Assembly: GCA_016839945.1 (NCBI GenBank)
Contig: JAEOTE010000019.1
Location: 326-64,325, forward strand
Direction: 5' to 3'
DNA: 64,000 nt
Source of the DNA: Candidatus Heimdallarchaeota archaeon
GTDB taxonomy: Archaea; Asgardarchaeota; Heimdallarchaeia; Heimdallarchaeales; Heimdallarchaeaceae
Part shown: positions 1-53,125 of the stretch, in pieces
Layout of the letters: each line of letters begins with the position of its first letter
Position numbering within the stretch: position 1 is the first letter of the stretch
Notes under the pieces: generated by a model
Told to the model about the DNA's origin: nothing
Databases searched by the model: none
What the model saw: only the letters and a program-made list of their open reading frames with translations
Program-made: the position numbers and the translations under genes

Positions 1-917
1 ATTCCTCTCCAAAGCGCTTCAATATCTGATTTTTCTCTTAATGGTGGTTGAACTACATATAATGCTCCTTCTGGTTCTAGATATTTTTCTCGAGTTAAGT
101 AGAGGAAGATTGGTCTCCCTTCGACATATACTGGATATTTTTCGAATTGAGCTTTTTCACAGATTTTGAGAGCTTCTTCTGAAGAGATATGCACAACATA
201 AATTGGTGCTCCAGTTGTTTTTGAGATATCGACTGCTTTTTGTGTTGCAACTGATTCTGAATTAACGGGTCTGCTATCAGCGTAAAACTTCAATGACTCC
301 TTTCCCTCTTCAATCATCCTTTCACGAGTTTCTTTGAGAATTTCATTATCCTCACAGTGTATCATGGAAAGCATTCCACTGTCTTTAGCAGTTTGAATAG
401 CTTTTATGTATAAATCTTCTTTTGCATCATAATCATCTGTAACCATGAAAATCTTAATGGTGTTGCATCCTTTCTCCATTAATTTTGGTATCTCTAGAAT
501 AGTTTCTTCTGTTGGAAAGAATATAACTGGGTGGATAAAAAAATCTGCTATCGCATTCTCGTTAATGGACTTTGATTCTCTCTCAATCGTACATATTGGA
601 GTTTCCTCTTTGTCGGGGACAGAAATGCAGCCAAGTGTAGTAATCCCTCCTGCAAGAGCTGCTTTTGATCCACTCTCAAAATCATCTGTCCAACGGAATT
701 CTTCTGGAACATAATCAGGTAATGAAAGGTGAACATGCGGATCAATTCCTCCTGGTAAAACCACTAGATTATCAGCATTAATCTCTCTAACTATTTTTGA
801 AGTAGGTACTAGATTCTCTCCTATTTCATGAATTTTTTCATCAATGATTTTGATGTCAGCTCTAATTCGTTTAGATTCAGTAACAATTAGACCATTTCGA
901 ATTAATATCTCACTCAT
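1..917 (-). CDS. cyclic amidohydrolase (dihydropyrimidinase/D-hydantoinase/dihydroorotase-like); C-terminus lies beyond the window
   Basis: Not in the ORF track because it is open at the window edge. My translation from ATG (917-915): MSEILIRNGLIVTESKRIRADIKIIDEKIHEIGENL..VVLPGGIDPHVHLSLP.., then IKIFM, MIHCED and VVHISS blocks. GGIDPHVH is the amidohydrolase-superfamily metal site. Track ORFs 445..714 and 548..745 are shadow ORFs inside it. Confidence 0.75.
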   Translation of the reverse strand, partial: MSEILIRNGLIVTESKRIRADIKIIDEKIHEIGENLVPTSKIVREINADNLVVLPGGIDPHVHLSLPDYVPEEFRWTDDFESGSKAALAGGITTLGCISVPDKEETPICTIERESKSINENAIADFFIHPVIFFPTEETILEIPKLMEKGCNTIKIFMVTDDYDAKEDLYIKAIQTAKDSGMLSMIHCEDNEILKETRERMIEEGKESLKFYADSRPVNSESVATQKAVDISKTTGAPIYVVHISSEEALKICEKAQFEKYPVYVEGRPIFLYLTREKYLEPEGALYVVQPPLREKSDIEALWRG

Positions 918-965
918 AAGAATTCTACCAATTTTACAATAGTTAATGACAATTAAATAAATTGT

Positions 966-1799
966 CTATTGAATTGGAGGACCTTTTCTTATTACTTCTC
1001 TTATTGCTTCTGTATCTCCTGTCCAATCAGTTACTGTTTGTAACCACCAAGTAACTCCAATTTCTCTAAATTCGTTGAATTTATCATATTCTGTCTGAAT
1101 ATCTTCTCCCATATTCCAGTAAATGCGTACGATATCATATGAATCAGGAAGTTCACCTTGAAGTTTCAGATATTCTGTGATTTGCTTCAATTCTTCTAAG
1201 GAGAGAGGTCTCCCTAAACCACGTAAAGGAATAACACCATCGAGTCTAGATGCTCTTCTGAATGGTCCTTTTTTTGGCCAAGTTCCTGCTCCCCACAATT
1301 TTATTCTTGGTTGTTGAACTGGTTTAAGAGACATTTTGACTTTATCCAATTTATAATGTTCTCCCTCAAAACTGAATTCCTCACCACTCCACAATCCATT
1401 TAGAATCTCTATTTGTTCAGCTGCCATTTTAGCATGTATTTTTGGATTGGTTTCCTCGTTCATTAAACCTAGTTCCTCTGGTCCTCCGAGACCTATCCCC
1501 AAAACAGCTCTACCATTTGATAAATGATCAAGAGTAACACACTCACTTGCTAGTTTCCAGGGTCTTCTTCTTGGCACAGGAGTAACAGTTGTACCAAAAA
1601 GTATTCTTTCAGTTTTGACAGCTGCAGCTGCTAAAGTTACAAATGGATCTACTATCGATGTTGAGTCCTCGGGAAACAAGTGATCCCATAAGAAAAATCC
1701 ATCCCATCCAGCTTCTTCCGCTTCTGTAATTAGATCAACAACCACTTGAGGGTTACCAAATGTTTTACCGTAATTTGGAGCATATATACCGAATTTCAT
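966..1799 (-). CDS. LLM-class (luciferase-like) flavin/F420-dependent oxidoreductase
   Basis: 277 aa. N-terminus MKFGIYAPNYG..DLITEAEEAGWDGFFLWDHL and the GIGLGG block are typical of luciferase-like monooxygenase family proteins. Confidence 0.7.
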   Translation of the reverse strand: MKFGIYAPNYGKTFGNPQVVVDLITEAEEAGWDGFFLWDHLFPEDSTSIVDPFVTLAAAAVKTERILFGTTVTPVPRRRPWKLASECVTLDHLSNGRAVLGIGLGGPEELGLMNEETNPKIHAKMAAEQIEILNGLWSGEEFSFEGEHYKLDKVKMSLKPVQQPRIKLWGAGTWPKKGPFRRASRLDGVIPLRGLGRPLSLEELKQITEYLKLQGELPDSYDIVRIYWNMGEDIQTEYDKFNEFREIGVTWWLQTVTDWTGDTEAIREVIRKGPPIQ

Positions 1800-4402: not shown

Positions 4403-4958
4403 TGTCTTTTATTACTTTCTTATTCTTAATTATTCCCCACCCACAAAATTCCATTCTTTTCCACCTGTCAAAATATTCCTCTTTTCTTAAATTGAGAATA
4501 TATCCAAAATATAAGGATAATATTATACCATGACTTACAACAAGGATTTTCCTGTTCGAATGCTGATTATCTATTAAATCTGTAGCTTTCATTATTCGAT
4601 TTAATGCACTTTTTGCTGTTTCCCATTCTTTAATCTCTGAACAACCTTCCACAAGAATCAATCTAACCTGTTTCTCATACTCACCCTTACCTTCAATATA
4701 ACCCCCTTCCCTTCCCAATTCATTAAAATCTGAGTATGTATCTATCTTTTTTCCTAATCTTTCGGCAACAAAAGCTGCAGTTTGAATTGCTTTCTTTTCT
4801 TTTGAGGAAATTATTATATCTATATCATCAAAAATACCTGAACTAGCTATTTTAGACATCTTTTCCTTTCCACTCTTCGCTATTTCCCATTTAACCACTG
4901 GAGAATCTTGATCAATAATAGTTAATGCATGTCTAAGGAAGAAAAAGGAGTTATTCAT
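4392..4958 (-). CDS. histidine phosphatase family protein (phosphoglycerate-mutase-like), copy 2
   Basis: 188 aa with FFLRHA (RHG-type catalytic motif) and VVSHGIIL. Paralog of 5014..5580. Overlaps the MBL gene by 11 nt. Confidence 0.7.
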   Translation of the reverse strand: MNNSFFFLRHALTIIDQDSPVVKWEIAKSGKEKMSKIASSGIFDDIDIIISSKEKKAIQTAAFVAERLGKKIDTYSDFNELGREGGYIEGKGEYEKQVRLILVEGCSEIKEWETAKSALNRIMKATDLIDNQHSNRKILVVSHGIILSLYFGYILNLRKEEYFDRWKRMEFCGWGIIKNKKVIKDIDS

Positions 4959-5013
4959 TATTTAAGAATATAACAGAAAGAAAAATAAGAATTGTGGAAT
5001 AAAATACTGCTTT

Positions 5014-5580
5014 TTACAAAAATATATCTCTCAAAACCTCATTATCCTTAACTCTACCCCAAGCACAACTTTTCAGAGCTTTCCATCTTGGGAAAAGGTT
5101 GCCTTGATTTTCTTTTAGTAGATTATTGAAGTAAAGAGTTAACACTATACCATGGCTTACTATGAGTATTATATTATGTTTGTATTCTTGTTCAATTCTT
5201 TCCAAAGCTAGTTGAAATCTTCTAGAAGCTTGAATTGCAGGTTCCCAACCTGAAACACTCTCCGAATAATTTTCGAAAACTTTCTTTACCTGTTTTTCAT
5301 ATTCTTCAGGATCATCAATTAGATTGGTTCCTTTATCTATCTCGTTTAATCCAGGATTTGTAATTATTTCTTTATCAAGTCTATCAGCGAGAAAATAAGC
5401 AGTTTGAATAGACTTCTTTTGTGTAGAAGTTATGATTATTTCTACATTATCAAAAATTCCTGTAGCTGCTACTTCTTCTATGAATTTAAGACCATCTTCT
5501 GACATTACCCATTTTTCAGAAGGAGCTTCTGTATCTTTTCTTACTTTTGTATGACGAAGGAAAATATATGTATTATGCAT
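5014..5580 (-). CDS. histidine phosphatase family protein (phosphoglycerate-mutase-like), copy 1
   Basis: 188 aa with IFLRHT and IVSHGIVL. Collinear with its neighbour of identical length. Confidence 0.7.
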   Translation of the reverse strand: MHNTYIFLRHTKVRKDTEAPSEKWVMSEDGLKFIEEVAATGIFDNVEIIITSTQKKSIQTAYFLADRLDKEIITNPGLNEIDKGTNLIDDPEEYEKQVKKVFENYSESVSGWEPAIQASRRFQLALERIEQEYKHNIILIVSHGIVLTLYFNNLLKENQGNLFPRWKALKSCAWGRVKDNEVLRDIFL

Positions 5581-5644
5581 GAAATCAAGAATATTATAAC
5601 ATTATAAAATTTAAATCTTTTCAGAAGAAAACTAAGTATTTAAG

Positions 5645-5660
5645 TTGAGAAAGAAAAAAA
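5645..5660 (-). terminator. oligo-T tract immediately after the last gene of the redox operon
   Basis: The minus strand reads TAA-A-TTTTTTTCTTTCTC directly after the stop at 5662-5664. Archaeal terminators are oligo-T runs. Confidence 0.4.
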
Positions 5661-5661
5661 T

Positions 5662-7323
5662 TTAGAGAGAGCTTTCATATAATTGAACAAGTCTATCTCT
5701 TACGATTTCGCTTCTGTACTCTGGGAGTAACATAGGACCATATCTCTTCTCTTTTAGCTTTAATGCATCCATTGTTTCAACTGTTTTTTTAACATGGTCT
5801 AGAGTCAGTTTTCCTACTTTAGCTTTCTTAATTTCTTTTGCAGCTTGGATACCTGCTCTTCTTCCAAAAACATTGACTTCAAGAAGAGAATTGCCCATCA
5901 ATCTGTTTTTTCCATGTACTCCTCCAGAAACTTCTCCTGCAATTAACAAACCAGGAACAGAGCTGTGACACCATTCATCATGTAGAACTCCACCATTTTG
6001 GTAATGAAGTGTTGGATATACAAGTACAGGATCTACTGTCATATCAATTCCGAACCTTTGCAGCATTCGATCCATAGCTGCAAGATTTTTATCTATAGTA
6101 CCCTTTCCTCTGATTTCTTCAATTAGAGGAGAGTCTAACCATACTCCTCTCATACCTGTTGGTGTCTCAATGTAATTATCAGTACTGCTACAACAACGAA
6201 TAATAGCAGAAGCTTCAACGTCTCTTGGTTCAAGAGGGTAGCATACTTGTTCACCATTTCTACCAATAACTTGAGCTCCTAATCCTCTTACTTTCTCGGT
6301 GATTAGGAGACCAACAATTTGTTCTGGATAAGCTGCTCCAGTTGGATGAAATTGTGTAGATTCTAAATTGCGAAGTTTAGCTCCTGTTCTATAAGCCAGT
6401 AACACACCATCCATTGTCGCACCATAATGATTGGTTGTTGGAAAACCAGCAACATGTAGTCTTCCAAATCCACCTGTAGCCATGATTGTTGTCTTAGCTC
6501 GTACAACAAAATATTGTTTTGTTTCTAGATGGTATAGAATTGCCCCTGTTACTCTTCCGGTTTCATCTGTTAATAGTTCTATTGCTGGTGTGAATTCTAA
6601 GGTTGGAATTTCTAGATTTCTGTATTCATCTCTGATTACTCTGAAAATTTCAAGTCCTGTATAATCTTTTGCACTATGCATTCTGAAACGAGAAGTACCT
6701 CCTCCAGAAAGAACCATGAAATTTCCCTCCTCAGTTAAGTCATACATAACACCTAAATCTTTATGCCATTTTATAATTTCAGGACCATCGTTTACAAGAG
6801 CTTTTGCTAGTTCAGGAATATTATCAAAATGACCTCCACCAATAGCATCTAAATAATGAATTAGAGGAGAATCTTCTGGTCTATCAGCAGCTTGAATCCC
6901 TCCTTGTGCCATAACGGTGTTAGCATCCCCGTGTCTTAGCTTTGAGCTAACTAAGATGTCATCGACTGGAATTCCAGAATAATGTGCCCAAATTGCAGCT
7001 GCTGTTCCTGCACCTCCAGCTCCAATGATTAAAACTCCAACATCATAATCTATTTTTGAGAGATCAATATCATCAGGATTAATAAGAGGGTAAGATTCAA
7101 GAACATCTGCAACTTCTACAGGAACGATATCTCCCTTATTTTGCCCGTAAGCAAGTGCCCTTTTTACATCTACCTTATAATCAGGATGATAATTTTTTAG
7201 AACTTCATCTCGTTCTTTCATTGTCATATGAGCACATACTTCATCTAATCTCTTACTTCGTGTTTTGTTAACATTGTCTATTGATTTTCTCATTTCTTCT
7301 GTGTATCCACCTGTTAGTTTCAT
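5662..7323 (-). CDS. FAD-dependent succinate dehydrogenase/fumarate reductase-family flavoprotein (SdhA/FrdA/TfrA/NadB-like)
   Basis: 553 aa. Motifs: GAGGAGTAAA dinucleotide fold, TVMAQGGIQAA, STQFHPTG, ITEKVRGLGA, GLLIAGEVSGGVHGKNRLMGNSLLEVNVFGRRAG. There is no His at the covalent-FAD position (ANT instead of SHT). About 90 aa of extra N-terminus precede the FAD fold. Confidence 0.8.
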   Translation of the reverse strand: MKLTGGYTEEMRKSIDNVNKTRSKRLDEVCAHMTMKERDEVLKNYHPDYKVDVKRALAYGQNKGDIVPVEVADVLESYPLINPDDIDLSKIDYDVGVLIIGAGGAGTAAAIWAHYSGIPVDDILVSSKLRHGDANTVMAQGGIQAADRPEDSPLIHYLDAIGGGHFDNIPELAKALVNDGPEIIKWHKDLGVMYDLTEEGNFMVLSGGGTSRFRMHSAKDYTGLEIFRVIRDEYRNLEIPTLEFTPAIELLTDETGRVTGAILYHLETKQYFVVRAKTTIMATGGFGRLHVAGFPTTNHYGATMDGVLLAYRTGAKLRNLESTQFHPTGAAYPEQIVGLLITEKVRGLGAQVIGRNGEQVCYPLEPRDVEASAIIRCCSSTDNYIETPTGMRGVWLDSPLIEEIRGKGTIDKNLAAMDRMLQRFGIDMTVDPVLVYPTLHYQNGGVLHDEWCHSSVPGLLIAGEVSGGVHGKNRLMGNSLLEVNVFGRRAGIQAAKEIKKAKVGKLTLDHVKKTVETMDALKLKEKRYGPMLLPEYRSEIVRDRLVQLYESSL

Positions 7324-7336
7324 TTTTGCACCTCTA

Positions 7337-8050
7337 TTACTCCTTATCTCTATTCTTATATCTCTCTTCTAGTTTTTCTTTAGAGAGAGCCATTAGCTCT
7401 TTGAATCCGTCTTCGTACTTACCATCTATGATTTCTTTGATTCTTTCATCAAGATAACTTGGAGCTATCATTAGATATTTGCCATAAAGTCGTCGTGCTA
7501 ATTCTGCTACATGGTATTGTGGGATTTCCGCAGGACAACGAATTGCACAAAGACCACAAGAAACACAATCGAAGCTTTCCTCCGCTGCTTTATCAATTTG
7601 ACCTTGTAGACTAAATTGAATATAATCCATCACCTGTATGTCCTGAGGACAAACTTTGCTGCATGCATTACAACTTAAACACCTTGCCACTTCAGGATAA
7701 AATCGAAGGATGGTATTTGCAGAAGGTGTAAGATTATTAATATCATAAGTTGGTTTGTCTGCTGGAACAAAAGGAAGTTGAGTTAAAACCATCCCATCTT
7801 CCACCATAGTTTGACAAGCTAGAGCTGTATAAATTCGAAAATCTCCTTCTTTTCTATAAACAGTTGAGCAAGCACCGCAGAAACCTGCCCTACAACCTGA
7901 ACCTCTGGTAAATTTGTAACCTGCATATTCCATTGCTTTCATTATGGTTAAAGTTGCGGGAACTTCATAAGCACTTCCCATTATGTAAATCTTAACATTT
8001 CCAGTAGTTTCTTTTTTTGTGTTTTTTGATTCTGTTTTTGCCTTAGACAT
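7337..8050 (-). CDS. SdhB/FrdB-like iron-sulfur subunit ([2Fe-2S] plus two Cys-cluster motifs)
   Basis: 237 aa. CRAGFCGAC..(n)..C is a plant-type 2Fe-2S pattern as in SdhB. It is followed by CLSCNACSKVCP and CVSCGLCAIRCP. Confidence 0.75.
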   Translation of the reverse strand: MSKAKTESKNTKKETTGNVKIYIMGSAYEVPATLTIMKAMEYAGYKFTRGSGCRAGFCGACSTVYRKEGDFRIYTALACQTMVEDGMVLTQLPFVPADKPTYDINNLTPSANTILRFYPEVARCLSCNACSKVCPQDIQVMDYIQFSLQGQIDKAAEESFDCVSCGLCAIRCPAEIPQYHVAELARRLYGKYLMIAPSYLDERIKEIIDGKYEDGFKELMALSKEKLEERYKNRDKE

Positions 8051-8060
8051 TTTATAACCT

Positions 8061-8972
8061 CTACTTGAATTTCAATTCTTTCAATAAAATTCGAGGATCA
8101 ATTTTGTGATCTTCAAAGTGATTTATTTCCACAGGCTCACCCATTGCTAATGCCATTAATTGACTAAAATAAAAAATTGGAATAGCTTCTTTTTTACCTG
8201 TTTTTTCCATTAACATCTTTTGTTGTTGATCTAGGTTGTAAGCGCATAAGGGACATGCTACTGCTAAAGCATTAGCTCCACGAATCATTGCTGAATCTAT
8301 AATTTTCTGAACTTGCCTTGTAACAATATCCTCATCACTAACAATGTGATAAGATCCACAACAATATTTGAACAATGGAGAAAATACAACTTCAGCACCT
8401 AGACTTTCTATTAAGTTTTCTAATACTGAAGGCATTTCTTCGTCATCTATCTTTGCTTCTTCTGGGTGTAGTAACATGCACCCATAGTAGGGGGTGACTT
8501 TAAAACCTTTCAATGGTTTGACTACCTTATTTGCAATCTTAGCGAAACCGATATTATCTCTTAATATCTCAAGAAAATGTTTCACTTCCATATCACTAGA
8601 ATAGGTCTCTTCATCATCTTCTAGTTGAAAATTAATTACTTCTAGTTTCTCAGGATCTACCAATACTTCACTATTTACTATTTTTAGTGTACTATTACAC
8701 ATTGAGCACAACGTCACTATATCCTGAGACGAATTTTCTAGCTCTTCAACGTGTTTTCTTGATCTAGCAAGTACTCTCACAGGAGCTATTCTTTTCATTA
8801 AGTTATCAGCTGTCATTGTGTGAACTGTGCCACAACAATTCCAATTAGGGATCTCTACGAGTTCAGCTTCCAGTTTCTTACTCACAGCTATTGCTGATTT
8901 CTCGAACCCTTTAGCATTTGTTTTTAGATTGCAACCTGGAAAGTACGAATAGTTAACCATTTCTTTTTTCAC
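8061..8972 (-). CDS. hdrB: heterodisulfide reductase subunit B-like protein (two CCG domains)
   Basis: 303 aa. YFPGCNLKT...NWNCCGT and YYGCMLL...KYCCGSY are two CCG motifs, plus ACPLCAYNLD. Confidence 0.85.
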   Translation of the reverse strand: MKKEMVNYSYFPGCNLKTNAKGFEKSAIAVSKKLEAELVEIPNWNCCGTVHTMTADNLMKRIAPVRVLARSRKHVEELENSSQDIVTLCSMCNSTLKIVNSEVLVDPEKLEVINFQLEDDEETYSSDMEVKHFLEILRDNIGFAKIANKVVKPLKGFKVTPYYGCMLLHPEEAKIDDEEMPSVLENLIESLGAEVVFSPLFKYCCGSYHIVSDEDIVTRQVQKIIDSAMIRGANALAVACPLCAYNLDQQQKMLMEKTGKKEAIPIFYFSQLMALAMGEPVEINHFEDHKIDPRILLKELKFK

Positions 8973-19986: not shown

Positions 19987-20637
19987 TTGTTGAAAATGTT
20001 AACAAGAGATTTGAGTGTAACAATTCTTGGCAACACTGGTGTTGGAAAGACTACTTTAATTCATCGTTTAATTGGTGAAAAATTTGAAGATATTAGTCCT
20101 ACCACAAGTATTGAAGTTCATCAAAAAACAATTCGCTTAAGGAGTCAATCTATTAAATCTAGTTTTAGTTTAGAGAAATATAGAAATTATAGAGTTAGAG
20201 CAATTGATTGTCCTGGTGATATGAGTTTGTGGCCTTATTGGAAAAAAGCTCTAGCTGATTATAATACTAATGGTATTATTTTTATGATAGATCCAACACA
20301 GGATGCAAAAGTACAGATAGATGCACTTACTCAGGTTTCCAATTATTTCTTAATGACACTGGATGATGATGTTGCCAGAGCTGAAAGAAAAGCAAGAAAA
20401 GTGAAAGCAATATTTTTCCTTGTAGTAAACAAAGTTGATCTTCTCGACTATAGCAAAGGAAAAGCAGATCAAGTAATCAGAGAAAATTATCAAACAGCTT
20501 GGAATCATCTAAAAGAAAGATATCCAAATAGTGGTCATTACTGGGAAGCTATATCCGCTATCGATGAATCAGAACAGATGTATGAGTCTATCGATGGAAT
20601 TTTTGAAACAATAAAAAGAGAGATTTATGGAGACTAA
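19987..20637 (+). CDS. Ras-superfamily small GTPase (Rag/Arf-like, Asgard-type)
   Basis: G1 GNTGVGKTT, G3 DCPGD, G4 NKVD, G5 SAI. A ~25-aa insert sits between G1 and G3. Start is either TTG 19987 or ATG 19996. Confidence 0.8.
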   Translation: MLKMLTRDLSVTILGNTGVGKTTLIHRLIGEKFEDISPTTSIEVHQKTIRLRSQSIKSSFSLEKYRNYRVRAIDCPGDMSLWPYWKKALADYNTNGIIFMIDPTQDAKVQIDALTQVSNYFLMTLDDDVARAERKARKVKAIFFLVVNKVDLLDYSKGKADQVIRENYQTAWNHLKERYPNSGHYWEAISAIDESEQMYESIDGIFETIKREIYGD

Positions 20638-23307: not shown

Positions 23308-24411
23308 CTATACATTAAATTTTCTTTTCTTACCTGTTATATCTTGATACAATTTGTCAATGCTATTTGTATATTCAGGGTATCTAGTAAATGCTATTTG
23401 AAAAGCCATATCGATTTCTGTTTCACCTAGACTTTCAAACTGTTGTTTTGGATTTGTTGTTAAAGCATAATATTGCGAAATTATACTTGTTCCAGAATAA
23501 CGGATTATCTTAACAACCTCTTCTTCAAGTTTTCTGATTGCAGAATCAATAATATCCCTGTGACTATATCCTCCTCCTTCTGCATCTGCTTGTAATTTTT
23601 GTAAGATCTCTATTGAATAGGGACTCTCTTCTCCTCCTCGTGCCTGTCCAACTGTTAAATCACAAATAATATTGTCTGGGTAATTTGACAGTAATTCAGG
23701 AGTTGCAAACAGAACGTCAAATTGATCAGGAGGGATATATTCCGGAGGAAAGAGTGAGACAAGTAGTTCTCTTCTTGGTTGGAATGATTGTAAAGATGAG
23801 AGGAATGGTTTAACCATTTCTTTTGAGCACATAACTATAAGTGGTTTCCCATTTAATAATGCATGAACAACTCTATCTTGACCTTGGCTTATAAGTCGCA
23901 TAAAGAAGTATGGAGCAGCAGCTGATCTTACAATTTCTATGGTTTGTACTCCAGCTGTTACATCTTGTTTAGTCTCTAAGATAGAATTTAGATTTGTACC
24001 CCAATTGAAAATCCTAGTTTTAAGGGATTCATCCATTTGGTAACCTGGTTCATATAATAACAAACCTGAAATTTGTTTTGCGATGTTGGAGCTGTGATAA
24101 TTGAAAACAGGAACCTTAATGTATAACTGAGACTGCATTTCTTCAGGTATTATGTAAGTTAAGCATGCCATGGTGATAGGTGATCTTTTACTTTTACATG
24201 GAACACCAAAGAAGAACGAATAAGCAACACCGCCTAAATCATGAAGAGGCATTACTGCACTAGCTTCTCTTAAGATATCTGTTGCTGCAGCACCCATCAA
24301 CATTCGAATGGATATCTTCTGTGCATCTTCTTCGGTTAAATTATCATAATATATCGCTCTTGTACCAACAGTATCATCAAATACACTAAAACACATTCTG
24401 TTTGGCATCAA
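23308..24411 (-). CDS. hypothetical protein; possible longin plus DENN-like (GEF-type) architecture
   Basis: 367 aa with no TM segments. See the finding; the assignment is pattern-based only. Confidence 0.3.
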   Translation of the reverse strand: MMPNRMCFSVFDDTVGTRAIYYDNLTEEDAQKISIRMLMGAAATDILREASAVMPLHDLGGVAYSFFFGVPCKSKRSPITMACLTYIIPEEMQSQLYIKVPVFNYHSSNIAKQISGLLLYEPGYQMDESLKTRIFNWGTNLNSILETKQDVTAGVQTIEIVRSAAAPYFFMRLISQGQDRVVHALLNGKPLIVMCSKEMVKPFLSSLQSFQPRRELLVSLFPPEYIPPDQFDVLFATPELLSNYPDNIICDLTVGQARGGEESPYSIEILQKLQADAEGGGYSHRDIIDSAIRKLEEEVVKIIRYSGTSIISQYYALTTNPKQQFESLGETEIDMAFQIAFTRYPEYTNSIDKLYQDITGKKRKFNV

Positions 24412-24511
24412 AAAATAATGACTTCCGGTCTCTATTAAATGTATTGTTGAGGGAAACTCATTTTTAGGTATTTTAAGGATATGAGCCTCTAAATCGAAGA
24501 AACACGGAATT

Positions 24512-24520
24512 TTTATATAT
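24512..24520 (+). promoter_or_regulatory. TATA-box candidate for the wHTH gene
   Basis: tttatatat lies about 35-45 nt upstream of the GTG 24555 / ATG 24564 start. Confidence 0.4.
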
Positions 24521-24554
24521 ACTCAATTATATAACACACCTATCCGGTTTAAAA

Positions 24555-24884: not shown

Positions 24885-24890
24885 TTACGA

Positions 24891-24910
24891 TTTCTCTTCT
24901 TTTTTTTTTA
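24891..24910 (+). terminator. oligo-T terminator between convergent genes
   Basis: tttctcttcttttttttttatt lies 7 nt after the stop at 24884. Confidence 0.5.
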
Positions 24911-24926
24911 TTATTAAAAACAAACA

Positions 24927-26353: not shown

Positions 26354-27931
26354 CTAATATTGATCTAAGTTAAAAGCTAATAGTTCTCTCTCTATGTTAG
26401 ATACTTTTTCTTCTACTACCCCTTCTTCTATGTCGCCTATCCGGATTTGGAATAGCTCAAAAACGGGTTGAGTTTCCCCTGATACTGTAAGTAGAACAGA
26501 GATATCTTCATTTCTTTTAGGAGGATTAGTTATCCATGTAATGTACTTAAAGTTTGCATCAGAAGCTTCTTCCATAATCTGGGATTCTACAGGAGACGTA
26601 TTTACTATAACATGATCAGCAGGAATTTTATCTGTAAATGATATCACATCTTCTATATGACTCAGAGCTCTGATAACATATAGAATCTTATATCCTGACT
26701 CTCTAGTTGAAGGTTGAAGTATTTTCAAACTTTTCAGTATATGATTCCCTTCTTTGTCTGTTACAAGTTTTTTACCTCTGAATAAGTACGAGAAATAATC
26801 TAGATTGTATTTTTTCTCTATTAGGCCCTCTGCTTTAACCTTCTTATGTTTCCATCTAACAGTAATACCTTTCATTTTTGCCCTTTCAATAATCCCTTGT
26901 GGAGCAATAGCTTCTGGGATTGTTTTCAGGATGTTGAATTCAGGTGGAATGGTATCTGCAATATATAATTCCTTTATTTCTTTGGAATGTGTGTTAATAT
27001 AATGAGTATTAGATCTGTATTCTAGGTCAGAAGGATTTATATTTTCAAAGGTTTTTAGAACAGTAATTTCTTGTTCATTCACTTCAAGAATAATTCTATT
27101 TATTCTTCTTTTTAGATGATAAGTAATTTCAACTCTGTCTTTTGGATTCAAATCAGGAATTTTCCATTTTATAAGTAATGATTCGTCTCCTCTAACCTGA
27201 TCCTTTTCTGCTCCTTCTTTATCTACATTTGTCATTAAAATCTTGTAACTATATGGGATTTCATCAATGATTTCTATATCGGTCATTTTGGAATCGTATC
27301 TATTAATAACGGTAGTAATAACAGAATATGCACCAATTGTCTCACCTATATTTACGTGCTTCATTATTTCTATACTTTTCTTTTCTCCATCAGCAAGATT
27401 GAACTGATGAGTTCCTTTGATTGTTGAAGGAACGTCTACTCGATTTATATCCACTAGCTTCTGTATCAGTTCATTCATTACAAATTCGTCTTCTGGAAGT
27501 TGCTTTATTTTAGTTAACCTTCCAATGATACTGACATCCTCTTCAACATTAAATGCTACACGAAGGTTTTCAGTGGAGATCTTTAGAGTTTCCAAAATAA
27601 TGTCCTCTAATTGCTCTTCTATCATCTCTTCCGCTCTTATCAAACGTAAGAGTAATCCATAGTCACTTCTTATACCCATGTTTTGGAAATATTCATCTAA
27701 CCAGCGTGCAACTCTTGTTTCGTGTGGAGGTAAAATCGTTGACCAAAAATCAAAAACAGTTCTTACAAGTTCATGCAAATTTTCACATTCTTTTTCATTT
27801 AACAAGTCTCGTGTATCGAAAAACTGGACTAGACCACTCATTGCAGTGTTAAACAGATTAGTATTAGGTTCTATCTCAATGAAATATCTGGTTGATCCCC
27901 AAATTGCTTTTCTTTCTGCCATATCAATCAA
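26354..27931 (-). CDS. hypothetical protein: helical N-domain plus three DUF11-like beta-sandwich repeats
   Basis: 525 aa with no signal peptide or TM. The internal 3x repeat is described in the finding. Confidence 0.6.
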   Translation of the reverse strand: MIDMAERKAIWGSTRYFIEIEPNTNLFNTAMSGLVQFFDTRDLLNEKECENLHELVRTVFDFWSTILPPHETRVARWLDEYFQNMGIRSDYGLLLRLIRAEEMIEEQLEDIILETLKISTENLRVAFNVEEDVSIIGRLTKIKQLPEDEFVMNELIQKLVDINRVDVPSTIKGTHQFNLADGEKKSIEIMKHVNIGETIGAYSVITTVINRYDSKMTDIEIIDEIPYSYKILMTNVDKEGAEKDQVRGDESLLIKWKIPDLNPKDRVEITYHLKRRINRIILEVNEQEITVLKTFENINPSDLEYRSNTHYINTHSKEIKELYIADTIPPEFNILKTIPEAIAPQGIIERAKMKGITVRWKHKKVKAEGLIEKKYNLDYFSYLFRGKKLVTDKEGNHILKSLKILQPSTRESGYKILYVIRALSHIEDVISFTDKIPADHVIVNTSPVESQIMEEASDANFKYITWITNPPKRNEDISVLLTVSGETQPVFELFQIRIGDIEEGVVEEKVSNIERELLAFNLDQY

Positions 27932-28529
27932 TCCTCACTATTTCATTAACTGAGATAACTTCAAACTCTTCAAGAGTCTCTGTTATCATTTGTAACTCTT
28001 CAGTATTTTCTTGTTTGTGGTTGAAAATCTTAATTGTGTAAGTTCCTCCAGGAAGCTCATTCAAGATATAATTCCTTATTTGGGTGTTATTTTCAAAAAG
28101 GACATTTGGAGCTGTAACTGTTGGACCAAAATCACCAAAAATGTCTTTTTTTGCAATTTCAACCACTTCCTTCTTTGATTTCTTTTCTGTTCGTTTTTCA
28201 AAAATTGTTCGAACTGTATTAAGATGAAAACTGCTGAGATCTTTCTCTGATGCTTTCTTATACATCTCCTCAGCTTTTTTGATATCATCTATCATTAGGT
28301 ATCTGCTTATTAGTTTGCTGTAAACATAAGCTAAAAGAGCTTCTTCTTCCATATTTTCCATTGTTTCCTCAAAGAAATGCCAAACAATGATGGATTCAAG
28401 AAACTGATCTTTTAATTCAAGCTCATTTGTTTTTGTTTCAATGAATTTCACGAACTCATCAATAGATTGCTGAGTCAAAATCTCCTTTGCTTCTCGTATT
28501 AATATTTGTACTGTATCTTCCTTACTCAA
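27924..28529 (-). CDS. hypothetical protein (helical N-half, small beta C-domain)
   Basis: 201 aa. Its stop overlaps the start of 26354..27931 by 8 nt, so the two are co-transcribed. No recognisable motif. Confidence 0.55.
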   Translation of the reverse strand: MSKEDTVQILIREAKEILTQQSIDEFVKFIETKTNELELKDQFLESIIVWHFFEETMENMEEEALLAYVYSKLISRYLMIDDIKKAEEMYKKASEKDLSSFHLNTVRTIFEKRTEKKSKKEVVEIAKKDIFGDFGPTVTAPNVLFENNTQIRNYILNELPGGTYTIKIFNHKQENTEELQMITETLEEFEVISVNEIVRID

Positions 28530-52555: not shown

Positions 52556-53125
52556 ATGAGCATGTTCGGTTCATTCTCTACATGGTTAAGGGCTAAACTC
52601 AAAAAAGAACAAAAAGCCAAAATTCTTATTCTAGGACTAGATGCGGCAGGGAAAACAACCCTAACCAGATTCATGAGATTTGGAAGATTTGCAGAAAATC
52701 TCACACCTACTATAGGACAGAACATTGAAAGTTTTGAATTTGAAGGATGGACTATTACAGCAATTGATGTTGCTGGACAATCACATTTCCGTTTCTTGTG
52801 GGAAGCTCATTATCCTGGTTGTAGTGCTGTTATTTTTGTTATTGATGCAGCTGATATAGAGCGTTTACCAGAAGCAAGAGATGTCTTAAAGACTCATGTT
52901 TTTAATAATCCGTACATGGAAAATGTACCAACATTAATCATGGCCAATAAACAAGATCTTCCTGGAGCAGTGGAAGCCCCACTACTAATTCAAATGCTAG
53001 GTCTTCATCTTGATTTGAAGGACAGAACCTTTGCTGTTTTTGATACAAGTATTTTACATGGGAAGGGAATTAAAGAAGCTTTTATATGGTTAGTAAATGA
53101 ATTGGATACTCATTTAGAACAATAA
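52556..53125 (+). CDS. Arf/Arl-family small GTPase
   Basis: 189 aa. ILILGLDAAGKTT, PTIGQN, IDVAGQ..FLW, ANKQDL and a predicted N-terminal amphipathic helix (MFGSFSTWLRAKLKK). Collinear with eukaryotic Arf1. Confidence 0.85.
   Translation: MSMFGSFSTWLRAKLKKEQKAKILILGLDAAGKTTLTRFMRFGRFAENLTPTIGQNIESFEFEGWTITAIDVAGQSHFRFLWEAHYPGCSAVIFVIDAADIERLPEARDVLKTHVFNNPYMENVPTLIMANKQDLPGAVEAPLLIQMLGLHLDLKDRTFAVFDTSILHGKGIKEAFIWLVNELDTHLEQ

Follow-up and report, generated by a model that had tools for sequence, protein, structure and literature searches.

To our knowledge, every longin-DENN protein characterized so far has a small GTPase or a trafficking complex as its target or partner. FLCN forms with FNIP1/2 a GTPase-activating protein (GAP) for RagC/D, C9orf72-SMCR8 (the CSW complex) is a GAP for Arf GTPases, and the classical DENN proteins DENND1A/B are guanine nucleotide exchange factors (GEFs) for Rab GTPases. 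Asgard DENN and FLCN-like longin-DENN proteins have already been described, Heimdallarchaeia included (Liu et al. 2021, bioRxiv 10.1101/2020.10.19.343400). In longins of the GAP type, strand 2 bears a GP motif and an arginine finger lies nearby, and both features have already been reported in Heimdallarchaeial "Folliculin/SMCR8 longin" proteins; DENND proteins carry neither (Traffic 2025, PMC12290439). According to Zhu et al. 2025 (PMC11914678), no native GEF or GAP has yet been identified for the Arf- and Rag-like GTPases of Asgard archaea. Here we examine an open reading frame (ORF; 23308..24411, minus strand) in a 64,000-nucleotide stretch of a Candidatus Heimdallarchaeota archaeon genome (contig JAEOTE010000019.1), the whole of which is hereafter called the window. 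Because an AlphaFold2 (AF2) model of its product, the Foldseek matches of that model, and the Pfam matches of its distant homologs agree, the product is supported as a compact, soluble, two-domain longin-DENN protein predicted to belong to the FLCN/SMCR8/C9orf72 branch. On balance, we rank a GAP-type role ahead of a non-catalytic platform, a GEF, and a use of the fold unrelated to small GTPases.

The protein resembles FLCN in the order of its parts (longin, linker, DENN core, and helical tail), in full-length Foldseek matches with E values of 5.6e-8 to 6e-7 (6nzd_H, 8dhb_J, and 6ulg_L), in the weak matches of its distant family members to Pfam Folliculin and Folliculin_C, and in an invariant arginine of the longin hairpin that a weak alignment sets against FLCN R164. 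It is unlike FLCN in that the two share only ∼10–12% identity and the protein itself has no hidden Markov model match; it is also much shorter, lacks the long disordered inserts of FLCN, and reads GT where the GP motif is expected. No FNIP-like partner was identified, and the clear Gtr1/RagA-type GTPase of the genome adjoins a different longin protein.

Likeness to C9orf72-SMCR8 consists of full-length fold matches (6lt0_C, 7o2w_A, and 7mge_B), of C9orf72-like being the commonest weak Pfam match among distant members, and of precomputed SMCR8_C matches to two such members, P0068 (with an Arf gene 15 bp downstream) and, weakly, P0041. Here, however, neither a WDR41-like component nor a heterodimer partner was identified, and the Pfam matches are sub-threshold. 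With the classical DENN Rab-GEFs (DENND1A/B) and DENND10 the protein shares the overall uDENN(longin)-cDENN-dDENN fold, but neither the protein nor the genome shows similarity to the Pfam DENN model (PF02141). Liu et al. 2021 described an operon in which an Asgard DENN gene adjoins genes for a LAMTOR1-like roadblock protein and a Rab-like GTPase; the 23308–24411 locus lacks this adjacency. Unlike the published Asgard FLCN-type or "Folliculin/SMCR8 longin domain-containing" proteins, the Heimdallarchaeaceae subfamily to which our protein belongs has GT instead of GP.

Predicted structure and domain organization

Two AF2 models were obtained. The first, from an alignment of close homologs only, had a predicted local distance difference test score (pLDDT) of 71 and an unresolved DENN core; the second, from a 46-sequence alignment including distant members, had a pLDDT of 87.5 and a predicted template modeling score of 0.71. 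AF2 places a longin domain at residues 1–120 (24052..24411; this and all following features of the protein lie on the minus strand) with the element order β-β-α-β-β-β-α, the strands being 5–12, 16–23, 50–56, 61–72, and 79–89 and the helices 27–41 and 90–117. The linker that follows (residues 121–167; 23911..24051) contains a long helix at 128–146 and is poorly predicted at ∼150–160. The predicted DENN α/β core occupies residues 168–262 (23626..23910), with helices 168–173, 178–187, 197–208, and 238–243 and strands 191–194, 218–220, 233–235, 248–251, and 256–258; Foldseek and the Folliculin_C and SMCR8_C matches of distant homologs also place it there. The remainder, residues 263–367 (23311..23625), is predicted to be a dDENN-like helical region made of helices 264–278, 284–306, 310–324, and 330–359. 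The most conserved block of the DENN core in homolog alignments is S205–P222 (SSLQSFQPRRELLVSLFP; 23746..23799), and a signature of the form LExFxP-x-R/K-x-L recurs across the family, with P212 present in 28 of 32 distant members and R/K214 in 24 of 32.

When the second model was compared with the PDB by Foldseek, the top nine matches were all full-length longin-DENN proteins (E 2.6e-8 to 6.7e-6, probability 1.00), aligned over ∼390–500 columns. The best was DENND10 (8p0v_M, E 2.6e-8), and the others were five chains of FLCN-FNIP2 complexes (6nzd_H, 8dhb_J, 6ulg_L, 6nzd_I, and 6ulg_N), DENND1A from its complex with Rab35 (6ekk_B, E 1.4e-6), and two chains of C9orf72-SMCR8 complexes (6lt0_C and 7o2w_A); the first model gave the same picture. 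Taken separately, the longin part matched 8yqg_B (TMt 0.71, rmsd 3.1) and the Lst4 longin 4zy8 (TM 0.5–0.6), and the DENN part matched the FLCN DENN crystal structure 3v42 (TMt 0.53). Profiles agree with the longin assignment: the family profile matches the Lokiarchaeota longin crystal structure 8yqg at E 3e-4, and a longin-only profile matches 8yqg_A at E 9.2e-5. The β-β-α-β-β-β-α longin fold is thus found at residues 5–117 by AF2, Foldseek, and the 8yqg_A profile match, and an α/β core followed by a helical dDENN region is found after this longin/uDENN domain by AF2 and Foldseek.

These results bear on an original prediction that had been made from sequence patterns alone and had proposed a longin-like N-domain, a DENN-core-like middle, and an overall longin-DENN architecture. 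Its DENN core is borne out by the AF2 α/β core, the full-length Foldseek matches, and 3v42, and its overall architecture by the identity of the nine best PDB matches. The longin elements that it named fit the AF2 model, but it missed the strand at 50–56. The structure comparison that it had proposed put longin-DENN proteins, and not an unrelated fold, at the top.

The bacterial type VI secretion accessory protein TagF (9t0n) appeared as a weaker full-length Foldseek match (E 1.7e-3, probability 0.80, 405 columns), a hint that a bacterial protein may share a longin-DENN-like build. Searching the literature for a link between TagF and DENN returned nothing usable.

Sequence relatives

Scanned against Pfam, the longin-DENN protein matched no family even at E ≤ 10, leaving the classical DENN, uDENN, and dDENN models unmatched; an NCBIfam scan produced noise only, and phmmer against the PDB produced no match. 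The uDENN (PF03456) and dDENN (PF03455) models were covered by the whole-Pfam scan only, and the DENN profile PF02141 found nothing in the whole genome. Phmmer over 1.84e9 representative proteins returned 53 relatives, of which those beyond the close set are mostly ∼335–380 amino acids long and 20–30% identical, with E values down to 1e-56; where named, these distant relatives belong to further Asgard lineages, namely Promethearchaeota, Hermod-, Hod-, and Heimdallarchaeota (including LC_3), and Jordarchaeum. A profile search of a word-indexed set of 5.8e9 proteins, which reached its candidate cap, brought up no additional relatives. For two of the distant members (P0062 and P0043), phmmer against the PDB gave chance matches only, such as orotidine monophosphate decarboxylase and PrgZ. 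The protein itself matched none of the Folliculin, C9orf72, and SMCR8 families (PF11704, PF16692, PF15019, and PF27109), and no match of its distant homologs in our scans rose above the curated thresholds. Below threshold, the Pfam matches of distant members form a consistent pattern and fall at the right positions, with C9orf72-like in five members (best E 6.8e-5), Folliculin_C in three, the Folliculin N-terminal model in two (best E 9e-5), and Fuz_longin_1, the FUZ/MON1 longin model, in one. Precomputed annotation assigns SMCR8_C (PF27109) to P0068 and, weakly, to P0041. The Pfam check suggested with the original prediction came out divided: the protein itself is unmatched, while its distant homologs weakly match Folliculin, Folliculin_C, C9orf72-like, and SMCR8_C. 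Judged by these matches, the sequence affinity lies with the FLCN/SMCR8/C9orf72 branch, whose complexes are GAPs, rather than with the classical DENN GEFs.

This affinity is relevant to direction. The original prediction was headed as a candidate GEF, although its text allowed "GEFs or GAP scaffolds". As a DENN-type GEF, the protein would bind the switch regions of a Rab/Arf-like GTPase through its DENN core and promote GDP release, as DENND1A/B do for Rab35. The presence of DENND1A-Rab35 among the top full-length fold matches is consistent with such a role, as is the fact that the block in which conservation peaks (residues 205–235) falls within the DENN core, and a role of this kind has been proposed for an Asgard DENN module by Liu et al. 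(bioRxiv 10.1101/2020.10.19.343400). However, a dimer interface would explain the conservation of the DENN core equally well, all of the weak sequence matches point to the FLCN/SMCR8/C9orf72 GAP branch, and the Pfam signal of classical DENN, uDENN, or dDENN is missing from the protein, as is that of PF02141 from the genome. Because the sequence relatives belong to the branch of GAP complexes and no classical DENN (PF02141) signal is present, exchange is the less likely direction, and we regard a GEF as unlikely.

Conservation and distribution

Close homologs form ∼30 clusters that are 68–95% identical over their full length, with a mean column identity of 81%; where their source is named, they come from metagenome-assembled genomes of Heimdallarchaeaceae or Heimdallarchaeota, with one exception labeled Thorarchaeota. 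Every database copy, close or distant, is annotated "hypothetical protein". Using a profile of the close homologs, we found the full-length gene exactly once in each of the 31 genomes that represent the species of Heimdallarchaeaceae, covering five genera; two of these are single-contig closed genomes, and in two fragmented ones the gene is split across contig ends. At three syntenic loci the protein is 68–77% identical to ours, as compared to 51–63% for geranylgeranyl reductase (GGR), 63–69% for the Sir2 deacetylase, and 59–78% for GTP cyclohydrolase II, and only the nearby GTPase (74–86%) and oxidoreductase subunits are more conserved. Because it has ∼30 clusters of close homologs, occurs as a single copy in 31 of 31 genomes, and is conserved at or above the level of the neighboring enzymes, the ORF is a real, constrained gene.

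A broader profile gave full-length matches in all 17 sampled genomes of the same family; within the class, two more families had them as well (7 of 7 and 1 of 1, often with several paralogs); other Asgard families gave longin-only or DENN-only partial matches, or none. This distribution of the full-length form agrees with that of Liu et al. (bioRxiv 10.1101/2020.10.19.343400). As profile matches indicate, the family is Asgard-wide, and its compact full-length form is concentrated in Heimdallarchaeia.

Candidate catalytic site and mode of action

Where strand 2 begins and a GP motif would be expected, the protein has G16-T17 (24361..24366). In the wider family the N-terminal consensus is FSxFDxxxGP, with the G present in 26 of 30 distant members and the P in 24 of 30, so the Heimdallarchaeaceae subfamily carries a GT variant of the motif that typifies GAP-type longins. 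The hairpin between strands 61–72 and 79–89 bears the loop K73-S-K-R76-S-P78 (24178..24195), which, R76 included, is invariant in 24 of 24 close homologs; R76 is the candidate arginine finger. A subset of distant members has "ARG" or "RRG", which are FLCN-like, or "LRG" in the equivalent loop, and the rest have no arginine, a division reminiscent of catalytic and non-catalytic subunits.

We consider a GAP-type role, with R76 as the arginine finger, the most likely reading, a preference held tentatively and just short of an even chance. By analogy with the FLCN/SMCR8/C9orf72 branch, the protein would dimerize through its longin and DENN domains, and the longin face would dock a small Arf- or Rag-like GTPase. 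R76, presented by the invariant KSKRSP hairpin loop, would then act as the arginine finger, and GTP hydrolysis would be stimulated. Our data show the fold of the protein, its family relationship, how well it is conserved, and where the invariant residues R76 and G16 lie, whereas dimerization, GTPase binding, the GAP direction, and the identity of the client are inferred.

A number of observations weigh against this interpretation. At the level of the fold, global Foldseek TM-scores are low (0.25–0.36, rmsd 15–28 Å), which we attribute to a different inter-domain orientation in the model, and Foldseek is blind to the distinction between GAP-type and GEF-type DENN proteins, as DENND10 and DENND1A rank alongside FLCN. 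At the level of sequence, the protein itself matches no Pfam or NCBIfam model, the Folliculin, Folliculin_C, C9orf72-like, and Fuz_longin_1 matches of its relatives (E 7e-5 to 3e-3) are all below curated cut-offs, and support from SMCR8_C consists of precomputed matches only. At the candidate site, G16 is invariant, but residue 17 is T, V, or S and never P in 14 of 14 close homologs examined; the hhalign pairing of R76 with FLCN R164, which sets "CKSKRS" of the longin profile on "DSLARG", has poor statistics (E 0.004, probability 8%) and was made against an FLCN sequence entered by hand rather than drawn from a database, making the correspondence a lead and not a test. One full-length longin-DENN gene was found in the source genome (3.0 Mb, 88% complete), whereas the eukaryotic GAP complexes are heterodimers, and two Asgard C9orf72-SMCR8-like candidates have been found to lack Arf-interacting regions (Zhu et al. 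2025, PMC11914678). Gene linkage was rejected as evidence for a client, since the frequency of nearby GTPase genes given below is not clearly above a rough chance expectation of 10%.

The incomplete GP motif is also compatible with a non-catalytic role of the kind played by FNIP, C9orf72, or DENND10. As such a platform or scaffold, the protein would bind a GTPase or some other complex while contributing no catalytic residue, and it might be paired, for example, with a roadblock-DENN or longin paralog. The top fold match, DENND10, is a non-enzymatic Commander subunit, Foldseek places FNIP2 and C9orf72 on a par with FLCN, and the several DENN and longin paralogs in the genome are potential partners. 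However, a KSKRSP loop that does not vary and holds R76 at the putative FLCN-finger position is more typical of a catalytic subunit, and the many distant relatives without the arginine better resemble the non-catalytic type. We judge a platform role rather unlikely, while placing it next in rank after the GAP-type role.

A more specific form of the GAP-type reading is that the protein resembles the ancestor of the eukaryotic longin-DENN GAP complexes, being a minimal homodimer made from a single gene and acting on an Asgard Arf-family GTPase. We think this doubtful; if it were true, no native regulator of the Arf/Rag-like switches of Asgard archaea would have been identified earlier, and the protein would serve as a living model for the origin of FLCN-FNIP and SMCR8-C9orf72 by duplication. 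The kind of protein is already known, as FLCN-like longin-DENN proteins of Heimdallarchaeia have been published, so the value of this one lies in being a well-defined test case rather than a discovery. What our analysis adds is a universal, single-copy, very conserved Heimdallarchaeaceae subfamily that is invisible to current Pfam and NCBIfam models, along with the combination of an invariant KSKRSP loop, bearing the candidate arginine finger, and the GT variant of GP. Because it is compact, soluble, strictly conserved, and single-copy, with an invariant candidate finger, the protein offers a practical entry point to the question of whether longin-DENN regulation is older than eukaryotes.

Small GTPases and candidate clients

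The two small GTPases that had been recognized in the window are both confirmed by Pfam. One is an Arf/Rag-like small GTPase with a switch-region insertion (19987..20637, plus strand; Pfam Arf 7.8e-10), and the other, at 52556, is a stronger match (Pfam Arf 2.8e-43). The former is the nearest GTPase gene, 2.7 kb from the longin-DENN gene and on the other strand, and its position is kept in relatives. Its proximity was rejected as evidence that it is the client and carries little weight because the whole ∼13-kb block is syntenic in related genomes; for the link to both GTPases at which the original prediction had hinted, we found nothing beyond this conserved synteny. The 19987–20637 GTPase is itself the most conserved gene of the neighborhood, 74–86% identical to its relatives and above the surrounding metabolic enzymes.

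We also considered 19 loci outside the family, 15 from other Heimdallarchaeia families and 4 of distant members, and found a small-GTPase gene within 5 kb at ∼3 of them (L013, L026, and L028). This count fits Tran et al. 2024 (PMC10933270), who state that in Asgard archaea GTPase genes do not, as a rule, share operons with longin or roadblock genes. The source genome has at least 18 Arf/Ras-type GTPase matches, and gene linkage does not identify the client of the longin-DENN protein among them. At L013, the gene of P0068 (5001–6089), the member with the precomputed SMCR8_C match, ends 15 bp ahead of a canonical Arf gene (6104–6652; Pfam Arf 1.2e-39). The two are a natural candidate regulator-client pair and give a concrete one to assay. 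P0028, a close-subfamily member, adjoins a divergent 308-residue Arf-family GTPase; at this locus (L002), the GTPase gene (4875–5801, minus strand), whose product has a C-terminal extension of ∼120 residues, takes the divergent upstream place that the 109-residue winged-helix-like gene has in the window.

That no client GTPase was identified is compatible with a longin-DENN fold reused apart from small GTPases, for example in ligand sensing or in membrane or protein targeting. The metabolic character of the gene neighbors (Sir2, acylphosphatase, GTP cyclohydrolase II, and geranylgeranyl reductase) and the appearance of PAS/LOV-like sensor domains as weaker Foldseek matches to the longin part would suit such a use. 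However, the genome is rich in Arf/Rag-like GTPases and some family members are operonic with Arf genes, and we consider reuse of this kind very unlikely.

Paralogs in the source genome

The other paralogs in the source genome are DENN-only proteins with roadblock-like N-termini, or longin-only proteins. A 326-residue paralog on contig C66 (L006: 1168–2148, plus strand) has a roadblock/longin-like N-terminus and a DENN core, matching Folliculin_C at 1.6e-3 (5.8e-4 in the genome search). Roughly 3 kb away on the same contig lies an Arf-family GTPase match (7749–8501, minus strand) in an open frame of ∼322 residues. Contig C102 carries tandem DENN paralogs with similar N-termini (L007: 757–2160 and 2233–2916, both plus strand), the first of 467 residues with a DENN-like C-terminal half, the second partial in the fetched stretch. 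A small-GTPase match (C102:656–1141) lies upstream of this tandem, an arrangement resembling the GTPase-DENN neighborhood of Liu et al. 2021. Contig C122 holds a paralog fragment, and a long open frame on contig C89 contains a weak match to the longin part only (E 0.0018).

On contig C46 (L009: 1498–2832, minus strand) a 444-residue protein combines an extracellular-looking N-terminus, one transmembrane segment, and, at its C-terminus, an FLCN-type longin that contains "FDQRKGPIPLV" (motif "RKGP"; Pfam Folliculin 0.017). Its gene lies directly upstream, on the same strand, of that of a 463-residue Gtr1/RagA-type GTPase with a long acidic tail (1–1389, minus strand; Gtr1_RagA 2.1e-25), and the two may form a membrane-anchored longin-Rag pair.

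Gene model and neighboring genes

The annotated start of the longin-DENN ORF is a TTG at 24411, giving 367 amino acids, and the very next codon is an ATG (24408–24406), giving 366. Because the ATG directly follows the TTG and homologs of 364–366 residues mostly begin "MPN/MVN...", the ATG at 24408 is probably the true start and the product 366 residues long. The window is AT-rich (30–37% GC). The gene is flanked by a divergent gene for a 109-residue winged-helix-like protein and by the Sir2 deacetylase gene, across A/T-rich spacers of 143 bp and 74 bp; from these spacers and the layout, it is probably monocistronic. The divergent intergenic region shared with the winged-helix-like gene (24412..24554) is A/T-rich and may be the promoter, with a TATA-like, A/T-rich "TTTAATA" ∼25–30 nucleotides upstream of the longin-DENN ATG. 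Other neighbors are the genes for acylphosphatase, GTP cyclohydrolase II, and GGR.

In relatives (L001–L004), the GGR gene is separated by a class I lysyl-tRNA synthetase gene from the gene that lies upstream of longin-DENN; the synthetase gene is absent from this position in the window, where the neighbors are just 42 bp apart (24885–24926). Two further genes of unassigned function and without Pfam matches, encoding 525 and 201 residues, overlap by 8 bp at 26354–28529 (minus strand); their synteny is kept in all related loci examined, yet they diverge rapidly (42–52% identity).

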